Made by a program: the position numbers and the translations under genes. A stretch of DNA of 64,000 nt, taken from positions 3,584,001-3,648,000 of the forward strand of contig OZ253462.1 in assembly GCA_965261395.1 (NCBI GenBank), written 5' to 3'. Shown in pieces: positions 30,693 to 38,340 of the stretch. A model generated the notes under the pieces. That model was not told where the DNA came from and searched no databases. It worked only from the letters and a program-made list of their open reading frames with translations. Numbering within the stretch: position 1 is the first letter of the stretch; each line of letters starts with the position of its first letter. Source of the stretch: Candidatus Latescibacterota bacterium (lineage in GTDB: Bacteria > Latescibacterota > UBA2968 > UBA8231).

Positions 30693-30747
30693 GATTGACA
30701 TATTGTAACGAGGGTATGCGTTTTGCCGGACCGCGTCAAGACGGGTG
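30693..30747. repeat. Left copy of 55-bp imperfect direct repeat bounding the TA/transposon island (contains putative uvrC promoter)
   Basis: 45/55 identical to 37086-37140; minus-strand TTGACG-17-TACCCT. Confidence 0.8.
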
Positions 30748-30861: not shown

Positions 30862-31227
30862 ATATCGACGATTCACAAGGCAGAAAGAGTCGTAACATGG
30901 GTTGGGGACTCGCTTGATCAAGTCCGCAGTTTTCCCCAACCCGCGAGAAGAACCATTGGTGAAGCTTTGCGTTTTGCTCAGTGGGGTACTAAACACCCGA
31001 AGGCAAAACCGTTGCAGGGGATTGGTCTAGGTATATTGGAGATTGTCGCCCGTTACGACACGGATACATACCGCGCCATTTATACTGTCAGAATCGGCAA
31101 GACCATCTATGTGCTTCATGCGTTTCAGAAGAAGTCCACTCGTGGTAGCAAAACTCCGAAGCAGGAAATTGACTTGATTAAACAGCGACTGAAGATAGCG
31201 CGATCGATGGAGACAAAAAATGAGTGA
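30862..31227 (+). CDS. RelE/ParE (Gp49-like) toxin, probable non-canonical ATA start
   Basis: Family-like N-terminus VVTWVGDSLDQVRSFP lies upstream of the TTG at 30967; DTYRAIYTV..IYVLHAFQKKS; SD AAAGGAG at 30844-30850. Confidence 0.8.
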   Translation: MSTIHKAERVVTWVGDSLDQVRSFPQPARRTIGEALRFAQWGTKHPKAKPLQGIGLGILEIVARYDTDTYRAIYTVRIGKTIYVLHAFQKKSTRGSKTPKQEIDLIKQRLKIARSMETKNE

Positions 31228-31549
31228 AGAAGTCAAATTCGAGCCAAGCTCTGGAAATGTGTTTAAGGACCTGGGATTCTCTAATGCGGAAGCTGAACGC
31301 GAACTGGTGAAGGCCGACCTCGCCTTGGCAATCTACAGCATCCTCAAAGAGCGCAAAATGACCCAGACAAAAGCCGGAGAAATCCTCGGCGTCAATCAGT
31401 CGGATGTATCGCGCTTGAAAAATGGTGATTTTGACCGCTTCAGTGTGGAGCGTCTGTTTGCGTTTCTCAATCGGCTCAATCGCAACGTCGAGATTCGCAT
31501 TACGTCGGCAGAAGATTTGCAGGGACACCAGCGAGTCGTTGCGGTATAG
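31220..31549 (+). CDS. XRE-HTH antitoxin (HigA2-like)
   Basis: SSGNVFKDLGF, MTQTKAGEILGVNQSDVSRL, FSVERL. Confidence 0.9.
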   Translation: MSEEVKFEPSSGNVFKDLGFSNAEAERELVKADLALAIYSILKERKMTQTKAGEILGVNQSDVSRLKNGDFDRFSVERLFAFLNRLNRNVEIRITSAEDLQGHQRVVAV

Positions 31550-31646: not shown

Positions 31647-31698
31647 TTGAGCAAAGAGGGCGATAATGGTATTGGTATCCAGTAGGTATCTACCATTC
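31647..31698 (-). pseudogene. VapC/PIN toxin 5' remnant split by the transposon
   Basis: Removing the element and one TSD restores ATG AAT GGT AGA TAC CTA CTG GAT ACC AAT = MNGRYLLDTNTIIALFAQ (ATG at 36165); PIN similarity is lost after ~18 codons. Confidence 0.75.
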
Positions 31699-31809
31699 GG
31701 TAGTGTCGCAGTTTGAAATCTGGCCTAAAACACCTGAATTATGGCACGCAGATTGCCTAGTTTCGGCGGATTGACTGGAATCACTGCCCAGTCCCTCCCA
31801 AGGACGAGC

Positions 31810-31872
31810 GGCGCGGATGTCTTGGGCATCCGCGCCGTTTTGCTTGACATCGGTCAATTCACTGTGTACTGT
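31810..31872 (+). promoter_or_regulatory. Hairpin plus sigma70 promoter inside transposon left end
   Basis: GGCGCGGATGTC-TTG-GGCATCCGCGCC-GTTTT, then TTGACA(31844)-17-TACTGT(31867). Confidence 0.65.
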
Positions 31873-31904
31873 CCATGTAACCTTTGCTCTGGAGGAAACT
31901 CACC

Positions 31905-32090
31905 ATGCCTAAAGGCCCTCAAGGACAGCGTCGTCCAGCCGATGCTGTCGGCTGTGCCGTTCAGGTGGCCCGCATCGCCACCGGCGAGGAACAGGAAGAT
32001 ACGCCTCAAAAGCAGCCTTCGACGCTCAAGCGTCTCCTAGACAAGGCCGCGCCCCTGTTCAAAAAGCCAGCCCATCAGAAAAACCGGTAG
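31905..32090 (+). CDS. Small basic protein MPKGPQGQRRPAD... (transposon accessory gene)
   Basis: SD GGAGG, own promoter, 61 aa; function unknown. Confidence 0.7.
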   Translation: MPKGPQGQRRPADAVGCAVQVARIATGEEQEDTPQKQPSTLKRLLDKAAPLFKKPAHQKNR

Positions 32091-32111
32091 AACGAAGGCT
32101 CGAACCGAAGA

Positions 32112-32303
32112 TTATTCTTCTCGATCCCTGTTGGCGTCTGTCAAACTCTGGCGTTCCAACTCTTCCTTAACAAGCCAATGCAACGCTGCAACCGTGTCTT
32201 TCTCCAGCTCCAGCACATCCTTCAAGGCGGCGTTGTTGGGCATCATATTGCTTTTTCCGTGCCGAATAGCCTTGAGCAATTCGATAAGCTCCATATCCTT
32301 CAT
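32112..32303 (-). CDS. Hypothetical 63-aa protein (variable partner, cassette A)
   Basis: Strong SD AAGGAGGTG overlapping the stop of the 73-aa ORF. Confidence 0.65.
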   Translation of the reverse strand: MKDMELIELLKAIRHGKSNMMPNNAALKDVLELEKDTVAALHWLVKEELERQSLTDANRDREE

Positions 32304-32501
32304 CGTCTCACCTCCTTGCCAAGATGATTTTCGGTGTGCGAGCGATCTGCATGGAGCGGGAGAGGATTCGTTCCATCTCCATATAACGGTACATCTCCAC
32401 TTCCTCGCGGATCTGATTGCGTTCTTCTTGCAACTGGAGACACAAGTTCCACGATCCGGAGCCGGGCGGCTGCGGTATGCGTGGGGCTTGTTCTAGTTCG
32501 G
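32299..32501. repeat. 203-bp direct repeat, copy A
   Basis: One mismatch seen versus 34844-35046 (offset 2545). Confidence 0.92.
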
Positions 32502-32529
32502 GGGTAACAGTACTATTAGAATTGACCAT
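32308..32529 (-). CDS. Conserved 73-aa protein (cassette A)
   Basis: Paralog of 34853..35074; SD GAAGGGAG lies within a hairpin. Confidence 0.7.
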   Translation of the reverse strand: MVNSNSTVTPELEQAPRIPQPPGSGSWNLCLQLQEERNQIREEVEMYRYMEMERILSRSMQIARTPKIILARR

Positions 32530-32636
32530 CGAAGAGTCTCCCTTCGTTGGTTACGCCCGCCGCGCCCGCCAAAGACGCGAAAGGCTGGATAATGGCCCCT
32601 CTTCGATCCTGGAATCAGGAGTCGAAGAGGGGCCGA
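32523..32636 (+). ncRNA. Putative cis-antisense sRNA A (three stem-loops)
   Basis: TTGTTC(32488)-17-TACTAT(32511) embedded in the ORF; hairpins 32524-32552, 32555-32585, 32594-32634, structurally mirrored in copy B. Ends are estimates. Confidence 0.55.
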
Positions 32637-32650
32637 AGTATGACGGCGAG

Positions 32651-32679
32651 AACGTATGGGTCCCGCCCCGAGAAGTCAA
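32651..32679 (-). promoter_or_regulatory. Sense promoter of cassette A
   Basis: Minus strand TTGACT(32679-32674)-17-TACGTT(32656-32651). Confidence 0.55.
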
Positions 32680-32787
32680 CCCACTTCTGGTTGATGAATT
32701 TCTGCCATTAGGCATCTATCCTTTGGGACTTATATACTTGGCTACACAGTGAGAACTTGACGTTGGTACACTACCATTCCCTAAAGT

Positions 32788-33387
32788 TCAGCCGCAACCG
32801 GCATCCTCTCCGAAGTACACGGACTGGACGTGTTCAACGTAGGCTAAATCTTCTTTGTAGTATTCGTATCGCTCATATGCCCGTTTAAGTCTACTTTCTA
32901 AGTCGTTCCAGCATTGTTCTCCGCAATCTGTTCCTATCCATAACTCGTCCATTAGAGCCGATATTTCTTTCACTGCGCAAGCATATCGCTCGACCTTGTA
33001 CTGGGACGATTCAACTTCTCGAAATACAATCGTCTCTAGCGTTGTGTTGCAAAGAGGCTCATGGAAGAGTTCTTCAGGATCAAATATCCAAACTCTTTCT
33101 GACCGATCTTGGGGATTTCTTATCTCAGTATCGGTATAAACGACGATAGGAGGGGTGTAGTGGTCTCCGTGGCCCTCATAGTTGAAAAAAGTCCCATATT
33201 CACTGTCGATGTAATCTAAGAGTCTGAGATTCCCGCTTTCAGTAATGAATACGGCTTTTACCACCGTATCGAGAATAGCCGCTTCGCAGGGGAACTCTTG
33301 GGTTACTGGTTTAAGGGCCTCCTCGGAAGAGGTTGGAGGCCCTGCACGGCATCCTACAAAAGCGATGAGGAGAATAAATAAGCCCAT
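32788..33387 (-). CDS. Hypothetical lipoprotein-like protein; 5' end probably cut off by IS5 insertion
   Basis: Hydrophobic segment plus FVGC; in frame with 34583..34656 once the IS and one TSD are removed. Confidence 0.65.
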   Translation of the reverse strand: MGLFILLIAFVGCRAGPPTSSEEALKPVTQEFPCEAAILDTVVKAVFITESGNLRLLDYIDSEYGTFFNYEGHGDHYTPPIVVYTDTEIRNPQDRSERVWIFDPEELFHEPLCNTTLETIVFREVESSQYKVERYACAVKEISALMDELWIGTDCGEQCWNDLESRLKRAYERYEYYKEDLAYVEHVQSVYFGEDAGCG

Positions 33388-33397
33388 AGCTTTCTGT

Positions 33398-34582
33398 GGC
33401 TTTGTTGCATGAAAACCGGTCGGGGCCGTGTTGGCTTCTTTCGCGTGTGATTTACGCTTTTTTGGTTAGCGGATAGGACTCAGGTTTCGCCAACGCCCGC
33501 ATCCGGTTGAGCAAGGCACAGCCCAACCGCGCTTCGGTCTGTTGGTTGGTTAGGGTTCGGGTGCGCAAGGTGTCACCAAGTATCTGTTTGTAGCGGCCTA
33601 TCTGCGTTTCGGCTACCGAGCGTCGATGATAGCCGCTCTCGTGTTTCCAACCTCGACGGCCCCGTTTGCGGATGGCTCGAATCGTCTCATCGCGGGGCAA
33701 CGGCTCGGCGTTGGTGTTGCCATGTTGCTCGATTTTGGCGTCCTTGCGCGGCGGAATGATCGGATGAATAGGTGCCCCCTGCTCGGGCGCGGCCAACGCC
33801 TTGAACACCTTGCGTTTGTCATAGGCCCCATCGCCGCCCAACGCCTCCACGGGGGCCTCGATCTGTGCCAGCAACGGCTCCACCTGCCCCGCATCATCGT
33901 GGCTATTCGTCGTCAAGGTCTGCGCGACGATCTCGCCGGTGGCTTCATTAACCCCGAGGTGCAATTTGCGCCACGTGCGCCGCTTGCTCCAGCCGTGCTG
34001 ACGCACCTTCCATTCGCCTTCGCCATACACTTTCAGCCCGGTCGAATCCACCACCAAGTGCATCGGTTGGTCTCCCCGCTGGGGCGGCCACGCCACGGCT
34101 AAACCCGCCTGACGGCGCGACAGGGTCGTGTGATCGGGCACCCGCAGATCCAAGCCCATCAGGGCCAACACCGAAGCGACAAACCCCTCGGTTTGGCGTA
34201 GGGGCAAGTGATACAAAAGACGCAGCGTCAACGCCGTTTGGATGGCGACCTCCGAAAAGGTATATTGCGCCCCCCGCTGAGGCGGCCCTTGATAATACCA
34301 AGCTTCGACGGCCTGGGGCGTGAACCACACCGTCAGACTACCGCGCTGTTGCAGCCCGGCCTCATAGTCGGCCCAATTACGTACCCGGTACACGACGTTG
34401 GAGCGACGGCGAGGCGAGCGACCAGGCTTGACGGAAGAGGGGCAAGACGATAGGTTGGCCATGACAGGTTCCTTGGACGAGAAAGCATGGGTTTTTTGGC
34501 GAAAGTCGTGCTCAATCTACTGAGGAGCCTGTTTTTATTCAACCGATCAACCGAAAAAAACACCAATTCATGCACCAAAGCC
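33398..34582 (-). mobile_element. IS5-family (IS903 group) insertion sequence, 1185 bp
   Basis: 16-bp TIRs GGCTTTG(T/G)TGCATGAA (15/16 match); 9-bp TSD GCTTTCTGT (33389-33397; 34583-34591). Confidence 0.93.
33452..34462 (-). CDS. IS5/IS903-group DDE transposase
   Basis: YRVRNWADYEAGLQQRGSLTVW, VPDHTTLSRR, VDSTGLK, WRKLHL, DGAYD, GYHRRSVAET. Confidence 0.95.
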   Translation of the reverse strand: MANLSSCPSSVKPGRSPRRRSNVVYRVRNWADYEAGLQQRGSLTVWFTPQAVEAWYYQGPPQRGAQYTFSEVAIQTALTLRLLYHLPLRQTEGFVASVLALMGLDLRVPDHTTLSRRQAGLAVAWPPQRGDQPMHLVVDSTGLKVYGEGEWKVRQHGWSKRRTWRKLHLGVNEATGEIVAQTLTTNSHDDAGQVEPLLAQIEAPVEALGGDGAYDKRKVFKALAAPEQGAPIHPIIPPRKDAKIEQHGNTNAEPLPRDETIRAIRKRGRRGWKHESGYHRRSVAETQIGRYKQILGDTLRTRTLTNQQTEARLGCALLNRMRALAKPESYPLTKKA

Positions 34583-34656
34583 GCTTTCTGTTGGGAATAG
34601 TTAGACTTAGAGGGGATTAGCTTACCGTGATCGGCTAGATCCTTTATGATGGACAT
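34583..34656 (-). pseudogene. Detached 5' end (MSIIKDLADHGK...QQKA) of the 32788..33387 gene
   Basis: SD AAAGGA, ATG 3 nt after the upstream stop; frame joins GC|T ATG GGC across the TSD. Confidence 0.6.
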
Positions 34657-34659
34657 GGG

Positions 34660-34848
34660 TCAGTCCTTTCTTCGCGTGCGATTGAACTCGTCGATTCTAT
34701 CCTTCCACCTCAAGGTATAGCGAATGCGGACTAGATCTGAATCCTCTAATACTTCGGGATATGGCTCGCCAAGAGCCTTTGTCTCTTGGTAGAAACGATC
34801 TTCCTCAAGGTCTAATTCGATCCACTGCTTATCTGAAGAAATGTTCAT
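34660..34848 (-). CDS. Hypothetical 62-aa protein (variable partner, cassette B)
   Basis: Same SD/ATG context as 32112..32303 but unrelated sequence after ATGAA. Confidence 0.65.
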   Translation of the reverse strand: MNISSDKQWIELDLEEDRFYQETKALGEPYPEVLEDSDLVRIRYTLRWKDRIDEFNRTRRKD

Positions 34849-35046
34849 CGTCTCACCTCCTTGCCAAGATGATTTTCGGTGTGCGAGCGATCTGCATGGA
34901 GCGGGAGAGGATTCGTTCCATCTCCATATAACGGTACATCTCCACTTCCTCGCGGATCTGATTGCGTTCTTCTTGCAACTGGAGACACAAGTTCCACAAT
35001 CCGGAGCCGGGCGGCTGCGGTATGCGTGGGGCTTGTTCTAGTTCGG
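34844..35046. repeat. 203-bp direct repeat, copy B
   Basis: Matches 32299-32501. Confidence 0.92.
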
Positions 35047-35074
35047 AGGGAATGGTACTATTGTGAGTGGCCAT
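34853..35074 (-). CDS. Conserved 73-aa protein (cassette B)
   Basis: Differs from copy A only within the first 10 aa and at one internal residue. Confidence 0.7.
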   Translation of the reverse strand: MATHNSTIPSELEQAPRIPQPPGSGLWNLCLQLQEERNQIREEVEMYRYMEMERILSRSMQIARTPKIILARR

Positions 35075-35183
35075 TAGAAGAGTGTTCCTTCTATGGTTAC
35101 GCCCTCGGCGCTCTAGGCAAGCGCTTCAGGCAAAATATTGGAGGCCCCGCCTCAACTTTGGGATTGAATCAGCGGAGCCTCAT
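35068..35183 (+). ncRNA. Putative cis-antisense sRNA B (three stem-loops)
   Basis: TTGTTC(35033)-17-TACTAT(35056) with TG extension; hairpins 35069-35098, 35101-35131, 35141-35181. Ends are estimates. Confidence 0.55.
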
Positions 35184-35205
35184 ATAGTAACGCAACAACA
35201 CCAAA

Positions 35206-35234
35206 ATCATACTCGCCTAACCGATCCTCGTCAA
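35206..35234 (-). promoter_or_regulatory. Sense promoter of cassette B
   Basis: Minus strand TTGACG(35234-35229)-17-TATGAT(35211-35206). Confidence 0.65.
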
Positions 35235-35303
35235 GTCGTAAAATCCCTATTTCAAAGTGAAATTTTCTTGTATAAGTCGGTGTTTTTGCGTATATGATGA
35301 GGC

Positions 35304-36086
35304 ATGAACCGACTGCCTTTAGACAAGCGTCTCCTGCTTCTGAACATGCTGGTGGAAGGCTCGTCGATGCGGGCGATCAGCCGCGTGGCGGATGTGTCCA
35401 TTAACACGGTCTGCAAGATGCTCGCCGACGCGGGACCCGTCTGCGCCCGCTATCACGACGAGATGGTGCGCTCAATGGATGTGCGCCGGGTCGAAGTGGA
35501 TGAGGTGTGGTCGTTTTGCTATGCCAAGCAGAAGACGGTCAACCAAGCTCCCGATCTGCCAGACGGTGCCGGCGACGTATGGACGTGGACGGCGATTGAT
35601 GCCGACACCAAGCTGATGCTGGCCTACGAGGTCGGCGACCGCTCCTTAGACACGGGCTTGGAGTTTCTGGAGAATCTGCGCGAAAGGCTGGCGAGCCCGG
35701 TCCATTTGGCCGCGGACGGCTACAACGTCTATCTGTCCGCGGTTGAGCAGGTCTTCGGCGAGGAGGCCAAACACCTGCTACGAACCGAAGGCGAGTCCAC
35801 GTCCTACGTGGAGCGGCAAAACCTGACCATGCGCATGGGGATGCGGCGGTTTACCCGCAAGACCAACGGCTTCAGCAAAAGGCTGGAGCGCCATGTGAAT
35901 ATGCTGTCGCTGTACTTCGTGCATTACAACTTCGTCCGAATCCATTCTTCGCTTAGGATGCCCCCGGCGATGGCCGCTGGGCTGACGGACACGCTTCACG
36001 ATATGGAGTGGCTGGCCGAGATGATCGAGGCTGGACTGCCCAAGCCGCAAAGACCCAAGAAATATCGCCCCCGAACCGCAAACTAA
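35304..36086 (+). CDS. IS1-family transposase (single ORF, HTH + DDE)
   Basis: LVEGSSMRAISRVADVSINTV HTH; VEVDEVWSF, WTWTAIDADTKL, AADG, TSYVERQNLTMR..RRFTRKTNGFSK. Confidence 0.9.
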   Translation: MNRLPLDKRLLLLNMLVEGSSMRAISRVADVSINTVCKMLADAGPVCARYHDEMVRSMDVRRVEVDEVWSFCYAKQKTVNQAPDLPDGAGDVWTWTAIDADTKLMLAYEVGDRSLDTGLEFLENLRERLASPVHLAADGYNVYLSAVEQVFGEEAKHLLRTEGESTSYVERQNLTMRMGMRRFTRKTNGFSKRLERHVNMLSLYFVHYNFVRIHSSLRMPPAMAAGLTDTLHDMEWLAEMIEAGLPKPQRPKKYRPRTAN

Positions 36087-36154
36087 AAGTCCCCTTGGCA
36101 ACAACCGTGCCAAGAGAACTTTTTTCAGCCTCCAATTTCAAACTGCGACACTAC

Positions 36155-37024
36155 CTACCATTCATCGGGATCTACGCTTTCGCAATCGGCTTGGATCGCT
36201 TCAGCCATCTTGTCCAAGTCTTCTCTATCTATTGTTCCTGCAAAGCGCAGCAGAGTCTTGCCGGACGCGCCTTCCATCTCGGACTTTGCTAACGAACGAA
36301 CGAATTCCAGGACCTCCGCTTGTTGGCCTTTTCCCAATTTATGGATCTCATCAAGAATTTCTTTTTCTATAGACGTATCTTTCATTTTCAGCCCGTGTTC
36401 ACGAGTTATACATGGCTGATCGGGCGATAGACGCGGGTTTTGTCCGATCCATGCGCTCACGAGTTCTGCAATCCTCGCTGGCATCAGGACGCGCAACCCA
36501 ACGAACTCGTCGAGGTCAGCAGGAGAGAGCTTGCTCGCAATCGCGCCGAGGTTCTCTTCAATCTCTCCCAACCAAGCGAGGGCGCGAATCGCATCGCCGG
36601 CTGGCCGGTGCGGTGCTACCAACTGCCAGCGCGGGGCATGGCGCAAATGCACTGTCAGGGCACCGAGTTTCAACCGACGACTGGGGCCAGAGGTCAGGTA
36701 CACCGACCGCACCGGCGTCTGAGTAGTGAGACCGAGGAAGTTCGCCGCCGCACCGCCACAGGGAACAATGGTCTCCCCCCACAGTTCCGCCAGCGCTTCA
36801 ATGACCTTCTCAACCGCGGGTGGGCGCAGACCGAAGCGAGTCTCTATAGGCCGGACATAGACGCCCTGACAGACCCGCATTAATTGTCCACGACGTGCGA
36901 GGCGCGACAGTGCTTGATCGACTGTCGCTCTGCTTCCGAGATGGAGCAACGCCCTTGGGCACAATAGCGATCCCTCGGGCAGTTCGGCGGCGCGTTGGGC
37001 GATGTGCTGAGATAGGCTTGGCAT
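36155..37024 (-). CDS. DUF6088/AbiEi-like type IV antitoxin, in frame with a 76-aa VapB/DUF2281-like antitoxin (36155..36385)
   Basis: GSRATVDQALSRLARRGQLMRVCQGVY, AANFLGLTTQTP..VYLTSGPSR; then MKDTSIEKEILDEIHKL...QAEVLEFVRSL...VDPDEW with no intervening stop. Confidence 0.75.
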   Translation of the reverse strand: MPSLSQHIAQRAAELPEGSLLCPRALLHLGSRATVDQALSRLARRGQLMRVCQGVYVRPIETRFGLRPPAVEKVIEALAELWGETIVPCGGAAANFLGLTTQTPVRSVYLTSGPSRRLKLGALTVHLRHAPRWQLVAPHRPAGDAIRALAWLGEIEENLGAIASKLSPADLDEFVGLRVLMPARIAELVSAWIGQNPRLSPDQPCITREHGLKMKDTSIEKEILDEIHKLGKGQQAEVLEFVRSLAKSEMEGASGKTLLRFAGTIDREDLDKMAEAIQADCESVDPDEW

Positions 37025-37085
37025 GGTCGTATCCATCGGTATAATGTCAGAAATATAGCGTAGAAACTGACTTAAACAAGGAGAG

Positions 37086-37128
37086 GATTGACATATTGCA
37101 ACGAGGATATGCCTTTCGCCCGGCAGCA

Positions 37129-37140
<12 letters not shown>
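37086..37140. repeat. Right copy of 55-bp island-bounding repeat (includes rlmI stop codon)
   Basis: 45/55 identical to 30693-30747; minus-strand TTGATG-17-TATCCT. Confidence 0.8.

Positions 37141-38340
<1,200 letters not shown>

Follow-up and report, generated by a model that had tools for sequence, protein, structure and literature searches.

A window of 64,000 nucleotides (nt) from a Candidatus Latescibacterota genome (assembly GCA_965261395.1, contig OZ253462.1, positions 3,584,001 to 3,648,000) was analysed; coordinates are those of the window unless another contig or locus is named. In it, an IS1-family transposon carries two related cassettes of small open reading frames (ORFs) on the minus strand. 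Each cassette is probably a copy of a portable gate borne by insertion sequences (ISs), in which a structured leader and a cis-antisense RNA would repress a coupled cargo. On comparison across genomes, the conserved unit is this predicted regulatory module and not the gene for a 73-amino-acid (aa) protein that follows it in the window, because elsewhere the module stands before unrelated ORFs and cargo.

Organisation of the two cassettes

As listed below, both cassettes comprised a sigma70-type promoter, a leader with three predicted hairpins (HP1–HP3), a 73-aa ORF (ORF1) and a second small ORF (ORF2) behind a Shine-Dalgarno (SD) sequence, with a promoter-like motif on the opposite strand inside ORF1.

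Cassette 1
32651..32679, minus strand: sense promoter TTGACT-17-TACGTT (located by pattern)
32530..32645, minus strand: leader of ~115 nt; HP1 32634-32594, HP2 32585-32555, HP3 32551-32525
32308..32529, minus strand: ORF1, 73 aa, predicted disordered N-terminus and long helix
32112..32303, minus strand: ORF2, 63 aa, starting 4 nt past the ORF1 stop, behind AAGGAGG
32067..32087, minus strand: terminator-like hairpin and T-run after the cassette
32488..32516, plus strand: antisense promoter-like motif TTGTTC-17-TACTAT; predicted start ~32523, predicted RNA ~32523-32640 (~120 nt)

Cassette 2
35206..35234, minus strand: sense promoter TTGACG-17-TATGAT (10/12 in a consensus scan)
35075..35199, minus strand: leader of ~125 nt; HP1 35181-35141, HP2 35131-35101, HP3 35096-35071
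34853..35074, minus strand: ORF1, 73 aa, 90% identical to that of cassette 1
34660..34848, minus strand: ORF2, 62 aa, coupled to ORF1 as in cassette 1
35033..35061, plus strand: antisense promoter-like motif TTGTTC-17-TACTAT; predicted start ~35068

The promoters, three-hairpin leaders, 73-aa ORFs, SD sequences, 62- and 63-aa ORFs and antisense motifs described in an earlier note on this DNA were all found in place. A scan for sigma70 consensus promoters flagged the sense promoter of cassette 2 only, not that of cassette 1. The −35 of the cassette 2 promoter lay inside an IS1595-type inverted-repeat-like sequence (35232-35253), which differed at 5 of 22 positions from the repeat of an element in another genome (G075, see below). 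For both leaders the predicted fold was three hairpins in matching order, and in both HP3 would bury the SD sequence and the AUG by pairing the SD with the bases preceding the AUG. Compared with shuffled sequences, the minimum free energy was −67 kcal/mol (z −6.5) for the cassette 1 leader and −50.1 kcal/mol (z −3.0) for that of cassette 2. Between the two leaders, 4 of the 29 predicted pairs had changed on both sides and could still pair. The sequence AAGGAGGTGA stood between ORF1 and ORF2 in both cassettes.

The cassettes shared a 231-nt repeat of 96% identity. Their leaders were 63.5% identical, with 11 nt as the longest common run; identity was 70% over codons 1–10, 99.5% (200/201) over a block from codon 11 of ORF1 to the ATGAA of ORF2, and 59% after that block. 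The paralogy claimed in the earlier note thus held for the promoter, the leader and ORF1 but not for the ORF2s, for which no BLASTP match between the 62- and 63-aa products was obtained at E<=0.05. The antisense motif was present on the plus strand in codons 5–14 of each 73-aa ORF, at the same offset as had been claimed, but as evidence this coincidence is trivial because the 231-nt repeat is common to both cassettes.

The leader as a structured RNA family

A covariance model (R1) was built on the two window leaders and rebuilt in two rounds (R2 and R3). R1 matched over its full length in G022, a different genome within the genus (E 3.8e-8); a further R1 match, in G016, lay inside the gene for ribosomal protein L1 and was discarded as chance. 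With R3, 17 copies were obtained at E<=0.01 (the model E-values being rough, and 8 of the 17 copies belonging to the training set) in 13 of the 76 genomes of family f1, representing 5 of its 18 genera; the order-level genome set consisted of the same 76 genomes. One of the 17 lay in this same genome at a great distance from the window (C1:6403264-6403380), making it the genome's third copy. In the window itself, R3 with filters off found only the two known copies, at 95.2 bits (cassette 1) and 94.2 bits (cassette 2). When a 151-genome sample of the phylum was searched with the leader model, matches were found only in f1 and in none of 87 genomes of 13 other families.

Covariation, which the earlier note had proposed looking for upstream of homologues of the 73-aa ORF, was found among the leaders of the family. 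In an alignment of 19 rows, which included two weak extra copies (one in G002, the other an additional copy in G011), compensatory changes occurred in 27 of 29 base pairs, and 91.6% of pairing cells could pair, versus 43–46% with slid partners; fitting the alignment to the model inflates the pairing somewhat, and the contrast with slid partners and the count of double changes remained clear. Within HP3, the hairpin predicted to sequester the SD, 5 of 6 pairs covaried in the family. None of 500 shuffles reached the observed value on any of five measures. The family members are kin, and binomial figures for counts over them overstate independence. Rfam gave no match at the cassettes (E<=1) and none in 15 member loci (E<=0.1). 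These comparisons indicated that the leader is a genuine structured RNA family, new and outside Rfam.

A degenerate DNA pattern of the leader core gave six matches in JGI metagenomes, the best of which scored 11.8 bits with R3, and these were rejected as chance. Three variant leaders had HP1 and HP2 and lacked the SD-AUG hairpin: G028 from among the 17, and both of the weak extras (G002 and G011). This subgroup may be a decayed or a different form of the element.

Leaders of the variant subgroup
L113, 216-326: HP1 and HP2 kept, SD-AUG hairpin lacking
L115, 44-163: HP1 and HP2 kept, SD-AUG hairpin lacking
L121, 1501-1626: HP1 and HP2 kept, SD-AUG hairpin lacking

A promoter-like motif embedded in the first codons

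Taken by itself, the window gave the antisense motif no significance, and antisense control, judged before the family was searched, looked unlikely; significance came only from the wider family. A strict rule was applied to the 16 copies with an AUG: TTGNNN-17-TANNNT in the antisense direction within nt 1–75 of ORF1, a rule set after four members had been seen. The motif was present in 11 of 16 copies, in 9 of 14 without the window copies, and in 6 of the 8 AUG-bearing copies (4 of 6 lineages) that R3 found after the rule was set. Under the same rule, four control segments gave 0/16 each (sense strand of nt 1–75; antisense strand of nt 76–150; antisense strand of nt 151–225; the leader), and the background was 159 of 22,718 ATG-ORF starts of this genome (0.7%). 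The claim that an antisense promoter sits in the first codons and faces back over the AUG, the SD and the leader was thereby strengthened at the level of the motif. As listed below, eight lineages (11 copies) bore it.

Cassettes 1 and 2 of the window: TTGTTC and TACTAT
G064: TTGTTC and TAGATT
G011: TTGCTC and TAGATT
G012: TTGTAC and TATATT
G022b: TTGTTG and TAATAT
G075: TTGTCG and TAGATT
G021: TTGCTG and TAGAAT
G000c, G029 and G024: TTGCAA and TATATT

The spacing was 17 in 11/11 copies, the spacers were unrelated, the distance to the AUG was 14–20 nt, and the two hexamers stood in different codon phases. In G024, whose ORF is cut to 21 codons, the motif was kept in a codon phase differing from that of the close relatives G000c and G029, and in the G000c lineage the hexamers encoded residues other than those of the window. 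Because the spacing is fixed while codon phases differ, and because the motif persists through the G024 frame shift and the changed residues of the G000c lineage, these comparisons argue for constraint on the nucleotides, as expected of a promoter, and not on the peptide. TTGACN-type sense promoters lay upstream of most family members, and the same strict rule with a 16–18-nt spacer recognised them in 9 of 17 copies; the embedded motif is therefore conserved no less well than the sense promoter. Over the family, the predicted antisense RNA would start at nt +7 to +13 of ORF1 and be 104–127 nt long.

Several observations weigh against the gate, in addition to the limits just given for the rule, the alignment, the E-values and the kinship of the members. 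The window motif matched the consensus at 7 of 12 positions and was not flagged by the consensus scan; sites of at least 7/12 numbered 218 on the plus and 175 on the minus strand of the 64 kb, about one per 300 nt, with 34 on the plus strand of the transposon. The −35 halves (TTGTTC and others) deviated from the TTGACN of the sense promoters. The strict motif was missing in 5 of 16 copies, of which G022a had CTGTTC-17-TATACT, G065 a −10 only, and G062a, G062b and G072 no embedded motif at all. HP1 was a weak candidate for an intrinsic terminator that would end the antisense RNA: the 10 nt past it held on average 4.2 T in the antisense and 3.5 in the sense direction, and the T-run was good only in G011, G012, G072 and G062a. 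The sole contig from an RNA library (32299-32462) continued into a cassette-2-type ORF2; it showed neither strand nor start and was uninformative on the antisense RNA. Finally, G-U pairs possible only in the sense strand outnumbered A-C cells, which would pair only in the antisense strand, by 41 to 22 in the leaders, and because of this excess the selected structure may belong chiefly to the mRNA.

The modest match, the frequency of equal sites and the silent scan would suit a chance motif copied by recent duplication, the cassettes being merely young paralogues, as would the position of the −35 within the 99.5% identical block. This explanation is very improbable and, on the family comparison, already hard to hold, since 9 of the 14 other members, whose ORFs and spacers are unrelated, carried the motif as well, compared with the 0.7% background and the empty controls.

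The G-U excess and the lack of a clear terminator for the antisense RNA would also agree with a cis-regulatory leader that acts in the sense direction only, as a protein-binding, temperature-sensing or ligand-sensing 5′ untranslated region (5′UTR), with no functional antisense RNA and with the conserved bases of the first codons serving translation initiation or a short N-terminal peptide. The conserved SD-burying hairpin and the alike N-terminal peptides of several members (MxxSTS...) could be accommodated as well. Such a leader would account poorly for a spacing of exactly 17 between hexamers in differing codon phases, for the survival of the motif in the G024 frame shift and with other residues in the G000c lineage, or for its absence from all four control segments, and we consider it unlikely.

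Cargo and mobile elements behind the module

The ORFs behind the leader showed no relation to the 73-aa protein and, for the most part, none among themselves, only ~16 N-terminal codons being alike; an exception was a common domain past the N-terminus in ORF1 of G011 and G021 (E 1.6e-5). None of the ORF1s matched a Pfam family or held a transposase domain, and the transposase genes lay elsewhere in the elements. In 7 of 16 copies ORF2 started −28 to +7 nt from the ORF1 stop. The cargo was diverse. In G029 (L126, 4206-5810, minus strand) a fused AriAB/PARIS-like gene (8.5e-61) had its start overlapped by the ORF1 stop; the related third copy in this genome (L125) had a 68-aa ORF1 and, ~600 nt on, a gene for a 1276-aa SNF2-type helicase with a DUF4926 N-terminus; in G011 a chondroitinase-B-like gene lay directly behind ORF1; G065 carried a DNA methylase and an HNH gene; and further cargo consisted of small unknown ORFs.

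Of the 16 copies examined (G024 was left out), ten were located within or next to IS1/IS1595-type elements, the two window copies included. For five of them, inverted repeats bounded an element that held the module; three of these five had target duplications of 7–9 bp, and in three elements the module started within ~70 nt of a repeat.

G022b: element of 1207 bp, transposase-less, IS1-type repeats (GGTAGTGG...), 7-bp duplication, leader starting ~48 nt inside a repeat
G075: element of 1918 bp, transposase-less, ~9-bp duplication, inserted in a PF00144-family gene
G062b: IS1595 element of 2058 bp, 8-bp duplication
G012: IS1595 element of 1920 bp
G022a: IS1595 element of 4.7 kb, with passengers
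G021 and G065: transposase gene ending 40–55 nt upstream of the module
G011: IS1 transposase gene convergent on the module

The G062b repeat had its own TTGACA and TATAAT, 16 nt apart, a consensus promoter reading into the module. In G000c, G029, G064, G062a, G072 and G028, no ORF matching a Pfam transposase family was found within ~3 kb.

In the three elements with the module close to a repeat, the embedded promoter is aimed at the element end. The outward promoter could then be the point of the arrangement, giving a trans-acting small RNA or a read-out that drives or silences neighbours or transposase binding, with the sense ORFs secondary; that ORF1 decays while the motif is kept in the G000c/G029/G024 lineage would fit. 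We regard this as improbable: the sense promoter, SD and AUG were kept in 16 of 17 copies, coupling of ORF2 was frequent, the ORF1s of G011 and G021 had retained a common domain, and the window cassettes face inward, far from the transposon ends.

The small proteins of the cassettes

Known relatives of the 73-aa ORF comprised only six proteins of 78–100% identity, two from this genome included. An exhaustive search of representatives gave one true match and nothing further credible; three long repetitive proteins that matched were taken as compositional similarity. Nothing better than E 0.017 was found in the genomes of 60 relatives, and no homologue in JGI metagenomes, GTDB representative genomes, IMG/VR, plasmids or phages; the ESM Atlas gave nothing usable, and PDB sequences gave short chance stretches only. 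The earlier note had not recognised the 73-aa protein as SymE, Ant or a hydrophobic type I toxin, and neither this ORF nor the 63- and 62-aa ORFs matched a family in Pfam, NCBIfam, PADLOC or PHROGs.

AlphaFold predicted for the 73-aa ORF1 a disordered N-terminus and one long amphipathic helix (residues 24–64, predicted local distance difference test score (pLDDT) 78), i.e. a charged single helix without a hydrophobic segment. The codon score of the 73-aa frame was 0.33–0.38 per codon (0.33 in cassette 1), against −0.33 and −0.02 for the overlapping frames, a decoy mean of −0.02, 0.37 for an IS5 transposase and a real-gene mean of 0.55. In a variant of the ORF from metagenome run X6, 4 of 4 changes were non-synonymous by codon reading (S26L, N38D, I40T and R58H), and one homologue had a frameshifted C-terminus. 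Codon usage thus favoured this frame over the overlapping ones, whereas the other observations did not, so that the evidence for coding is mixed. Because of the score below the real-gene mean, the non-synonymous changes and the shifted homologue, selection on the 73-aa protein looks weak. For the 63-aa ORF only three close homologues were found, with an invariant core and one variable loop, and for the 62-aa ORF only two, with long invariant stretches and a variable loop; this pattern of conservation looks protein-like. The ORF2 products were acidic, soluble-looking and without a hydrophobic segment. An AlphaFold2 model of the 62-aa ORF2 was a small beta-alpha fold (pLDDT 75), with which Foldseek gave no PDB match at E<=0.001.

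The earlier note had suggested that the 73-aa protein or its partner is an effector of a type I toxin-antitoxin (TA) system. In the strict form of this explanation, ORF1 or ORF2 is toxic and the antisense RNA is the antitoxin, for addiction to the transposon or defence of the cell. SD sequestration (here predicted, with covariation in HP3) combined with a cis-antisense RNA over the translation start is a type I architecture; ORF1 of G012 (55 aa) has a long hydrophobic stretch; the PARIS family, whose AriAB gene follows another member, is an abortive-infection defence system; TA- or abortive-infection-like genes neighbour the transposon in the window (Gp49/HTH_37 and DUF6088/AbiEi); and there is precedent for TA pairs inside transposons, Lima-Mendez et al. 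2020 being listed for these in a passage of the review PMC12548467. Type I toxins are usually hydrophobic membrane peptides of <60 aa, which neither ORF1 nor ORF2 of the window resembled: the 73-, 63- and 62-aa proteins had neither a hydrophobic segment nor a family match. The X6 allele and the frameshifted homologue likewise speak against a toxin, and the cargo is very diverse, including a secreted lyase-like gene. A strict type I TA system is a minority possibility, and the effector role proposed for the 73-aa protein and its partner was not supported.

The host transposon and its surroundings

The host element is an IS1-family transposon, having a transposase gene, terminal inverted repeats, an 8-bp target duplication and an empty site, and the placing of the cassettes inside a transposon by the earlier note was borne out by the same features. 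Its main features were as follows.

31699..36155, strand not applicable: IS1-family transposon, 4457 bp, containing both cassettes
35304..36086, plus strand: IS1-family transposase gene, 260 aa, Pfam PF03400 (DDE_Tnp_IS1), divergent from cassette 2
32755..32775, minus strand: IS1-type inverted-repeat-like sequence (GGTAGTGT...), ~75 nt upstream of the cassette 1 promoter
32788..34656, minus strand: third gene of the cassette 2 operon, 224-aa lipoprotein-like ORF, interrupted past codon 25 by the IS5-family insertion of the next line
33398-34582, strand not applicable: IS5-family element, 16-nt inverted repeats, 9-bp duplication GCTTTCTGT, 336-aa transposase

The inverted repeats were perfect over 21 nt (31699-31719 and 36135-36155) and flanked by the 8-bp duplication TACCATTC at 31691-31698 and 36156-36163. 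Contigs from three other metagenome runs (X6, X7 and X10), a comparison informative only for the window parts that contigs overlay, departed from the window exactly at 31698, and past that point the X6 contigs ran on into sequence resembling that beyond 36163. The transposase matched PF03400 at 7.1e-11 (43 bits; cut-off 24.1), and its gene was single-copy in the genome. It had 566 relatives of <=58% identity, mostly from Alphaproteobacteria; in the 80 kept loci encoding such relatives, homologues of the cassettes were absent.

Read on the minus strand from the transposase end, the order was cassette 2, the split third gene, the IS1-type repeat-like sequence and cassette 1. The repeat-like sequence matched the transposon's own repeat at 14 of 21 bases, the first 8 being identical, and together with the repeat at 31699 it bracketed a 1077-bp unit whose layout matches that of the 1207-bp transposase-less element of G022. 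The IS5 transposase matched DDE_Tnp_1_5 (7e-39), and the two parts of the 224-aa ORF were in frame once the IS5 element and one duplicate were removed.

Further observations were made inside the transposon. At 31790-31841 (plus strand), ~100 nt inside the left inverted repeat and facing inward, a G+C-rich hairpin was followed by TTTTGCTT; it could halt transcription into the element, by analogy with the left-end terminator of IS200. The Rfam symR model matched this stretch at E 0.27 (23.8 bits versus a gathering score of 61), off the cassettes, and the match was rejected as chance. A 61-aa ORF with a GGAGG SD sequence and no family match (31905-32090, plus strand) was convergent with cassette 1. 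A contig of run X7 joined 31870 directly to 32092, marking a 221-nt piece as an insertion/deletion difference between strains. A contig of run X6 joined 32725 to 32512, skipping the promoter, leader and first six codons of cassette 1 (32513-32724); this junction, with 41 nt on its short side and a depth of 16, may reflect either a true deletion or a joint made in assembly.

Immediately left of the transposon (30967-31549, plus strand) lay a gene pair encoding Gp49/HigB-like (86 aa) and HTH_37/HigA-like (109 aa) proteins, and on the right a DUF6088/AbiEi-like ORF of 385 aa (36155-37312, minus strand) ended exactly at the transposon border, its TAG stop being identical with or without the insertion according to the flanks. 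A 53-nt direct repeat (83%; 30693-30745 and 37086-37138) bracketed the stretch of HigBA, transposon and AbiEi-like ORF, and that stretch sat between uvrC and a methyltransferase-like gene. The repeat may mark the borders of a larger island.

Proposed mechanism and significance

In the proposed gate, a sigma70-type promoter, in some copies partly within an IS inverted repeat, would drive an mRNA whose 5′ leader of 105–130 nt folds into three hairpins, the last burying the SD sequence and the start codon. A second promoter, TTGNNN-17-TANNNT on the opposite strand within the first 5–16 codons of the first ORF, would give a cis-antisense RNA of ~105–125 nt that extends back across the opening codons, the AUG and the SD and over all of the leader. 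Translation of ORF1 would be held low by the leader fold together with antisense pairing, as would downstream genes that start next to the ORF1 stop or overlap it, so that the module would gate the cargo of IS1/IS1595-type elements. In the window this cargo consists of the 73-aa helical protein with its 63-aa partner in one cassette, and of the 73-aa protein with its 62-aa partner and the 224-aa lipoprotein-like gene in the other. Each antisense RNA would act mainly on its own cassette, because the leaders are 63.5% alike and share no run longer than 11 nt. What the sequences show is the anatomy, the covarying leader structure, the distribution of the family, the conserved embedded motif and the link to IS ends; activity of the motif as a promoter, repression by the RNA and the function of the cargo are inferred.

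More tentatively, the unit may be a self-contained mobile "antisense gate", in which bidirectional promoter, 5′UTR and antisense RNA move with IS1/IS1595 ends to positions before unrelated cargo. Newly captured genes would then receive ready-made, copy-specific post-transcriptional repression, the promoter and not the protein would dictate the N-terminal codons of the cargo, and an uncultivated phylum would hold portable cassettes, new as a class, that regulate transposon cargo. Insertion sequences would carry a reusable antisense-RNA switch for their passengers, beyond the transposase, and the passengers would form a list of unknown small proteins that evidently have to be kept under tight repression by cell or element. 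Should the embedded promoter fire, the leaders would be a lineage-specific RNA family whose mechanism is clear and testable, from a phylum that to our knowledge has no genetics at all. The covariance model can be used for annotating these elements, and the 17 natural variants, two of them diverged within one transposon, are material for work on the specificity of antisense pairing.

Comparison with known systems

The module is close in layout to IS200 tnpA/art200 (STnc490), in which a stem-loop of the structured 5′UTR sequesters the SD sequence and an antisense RNA exerts control (PMC4513863). The module resembles it in its place at an IS end, in an SD-sequestering leader and in a predicted antisense RNA over the 5′UTR together with the opening codons. 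It differs in having variable small ORFs and cargo instead of the transposase as target, three hairpins instead of one, hosts of IS1/IS1595 type instead of IS200/IS605, and no sequence or Rfam relation, and it is known so far from sequence only.

An antisense promoter embedded in the target ORF is described for symE/SymR in a passage of PMC1891008. The module shares, by prediction, such an embedded promoter and an RNA over the translation start; in contrast to symE/SymR, there is no SymE-like protein (no Pfam match), the cassettes gave no SymR match in Rfam, LexA control is not evident, and the module is mobile and stands before many different ORFs. Because target, sequence and protein all differ, the module is not a member of the art200 or SymR families.

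In the RNA-IN/RNA-OUT system of IS10, the inward promoter pIN near the IS end faces an outward promoter, pOUT, just inside, and the two transcripts overlap at the translation start. A facing inward/outward promoter pair near an IS end is predicted here too, but the predicted overlap here is ~110–125 nt instead of ~35 nt, the target is not the transposase and there is no sequence relation. In hok/mok/sok of plasmid R1, an antisense RNA acts on the start of an upstream frame that is coupled to the effector, and the mRNA is highly structured. The module is predicted to share the antisense RNA over the start of the upstream frame, the coupled downstream gene and the structured mRNA; it differs in that the window holds no hydrophobic Hok-like peptide, Rfam gave no match, and the upstream ORF is long (73 aa) and itself a variable cargo.

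"Transporter ISs" are described in a passage of the ISsaga paper (PMC3129680) that cites Siguier et al. 2009, and the IS1- and IS1595-type elements with extra genes between inverted repeats resemble them. The elements described here differ in the conserved, predicted antisense/leader module before the passenger genes; in our literature search, no publication was found that describes a module of this kind for passengers of IS1595/IS1 elements or for this phylum. Transporter ISs themselves are known already and, as far as that search found, the leader/antisense module placed before their passengers is the new part.

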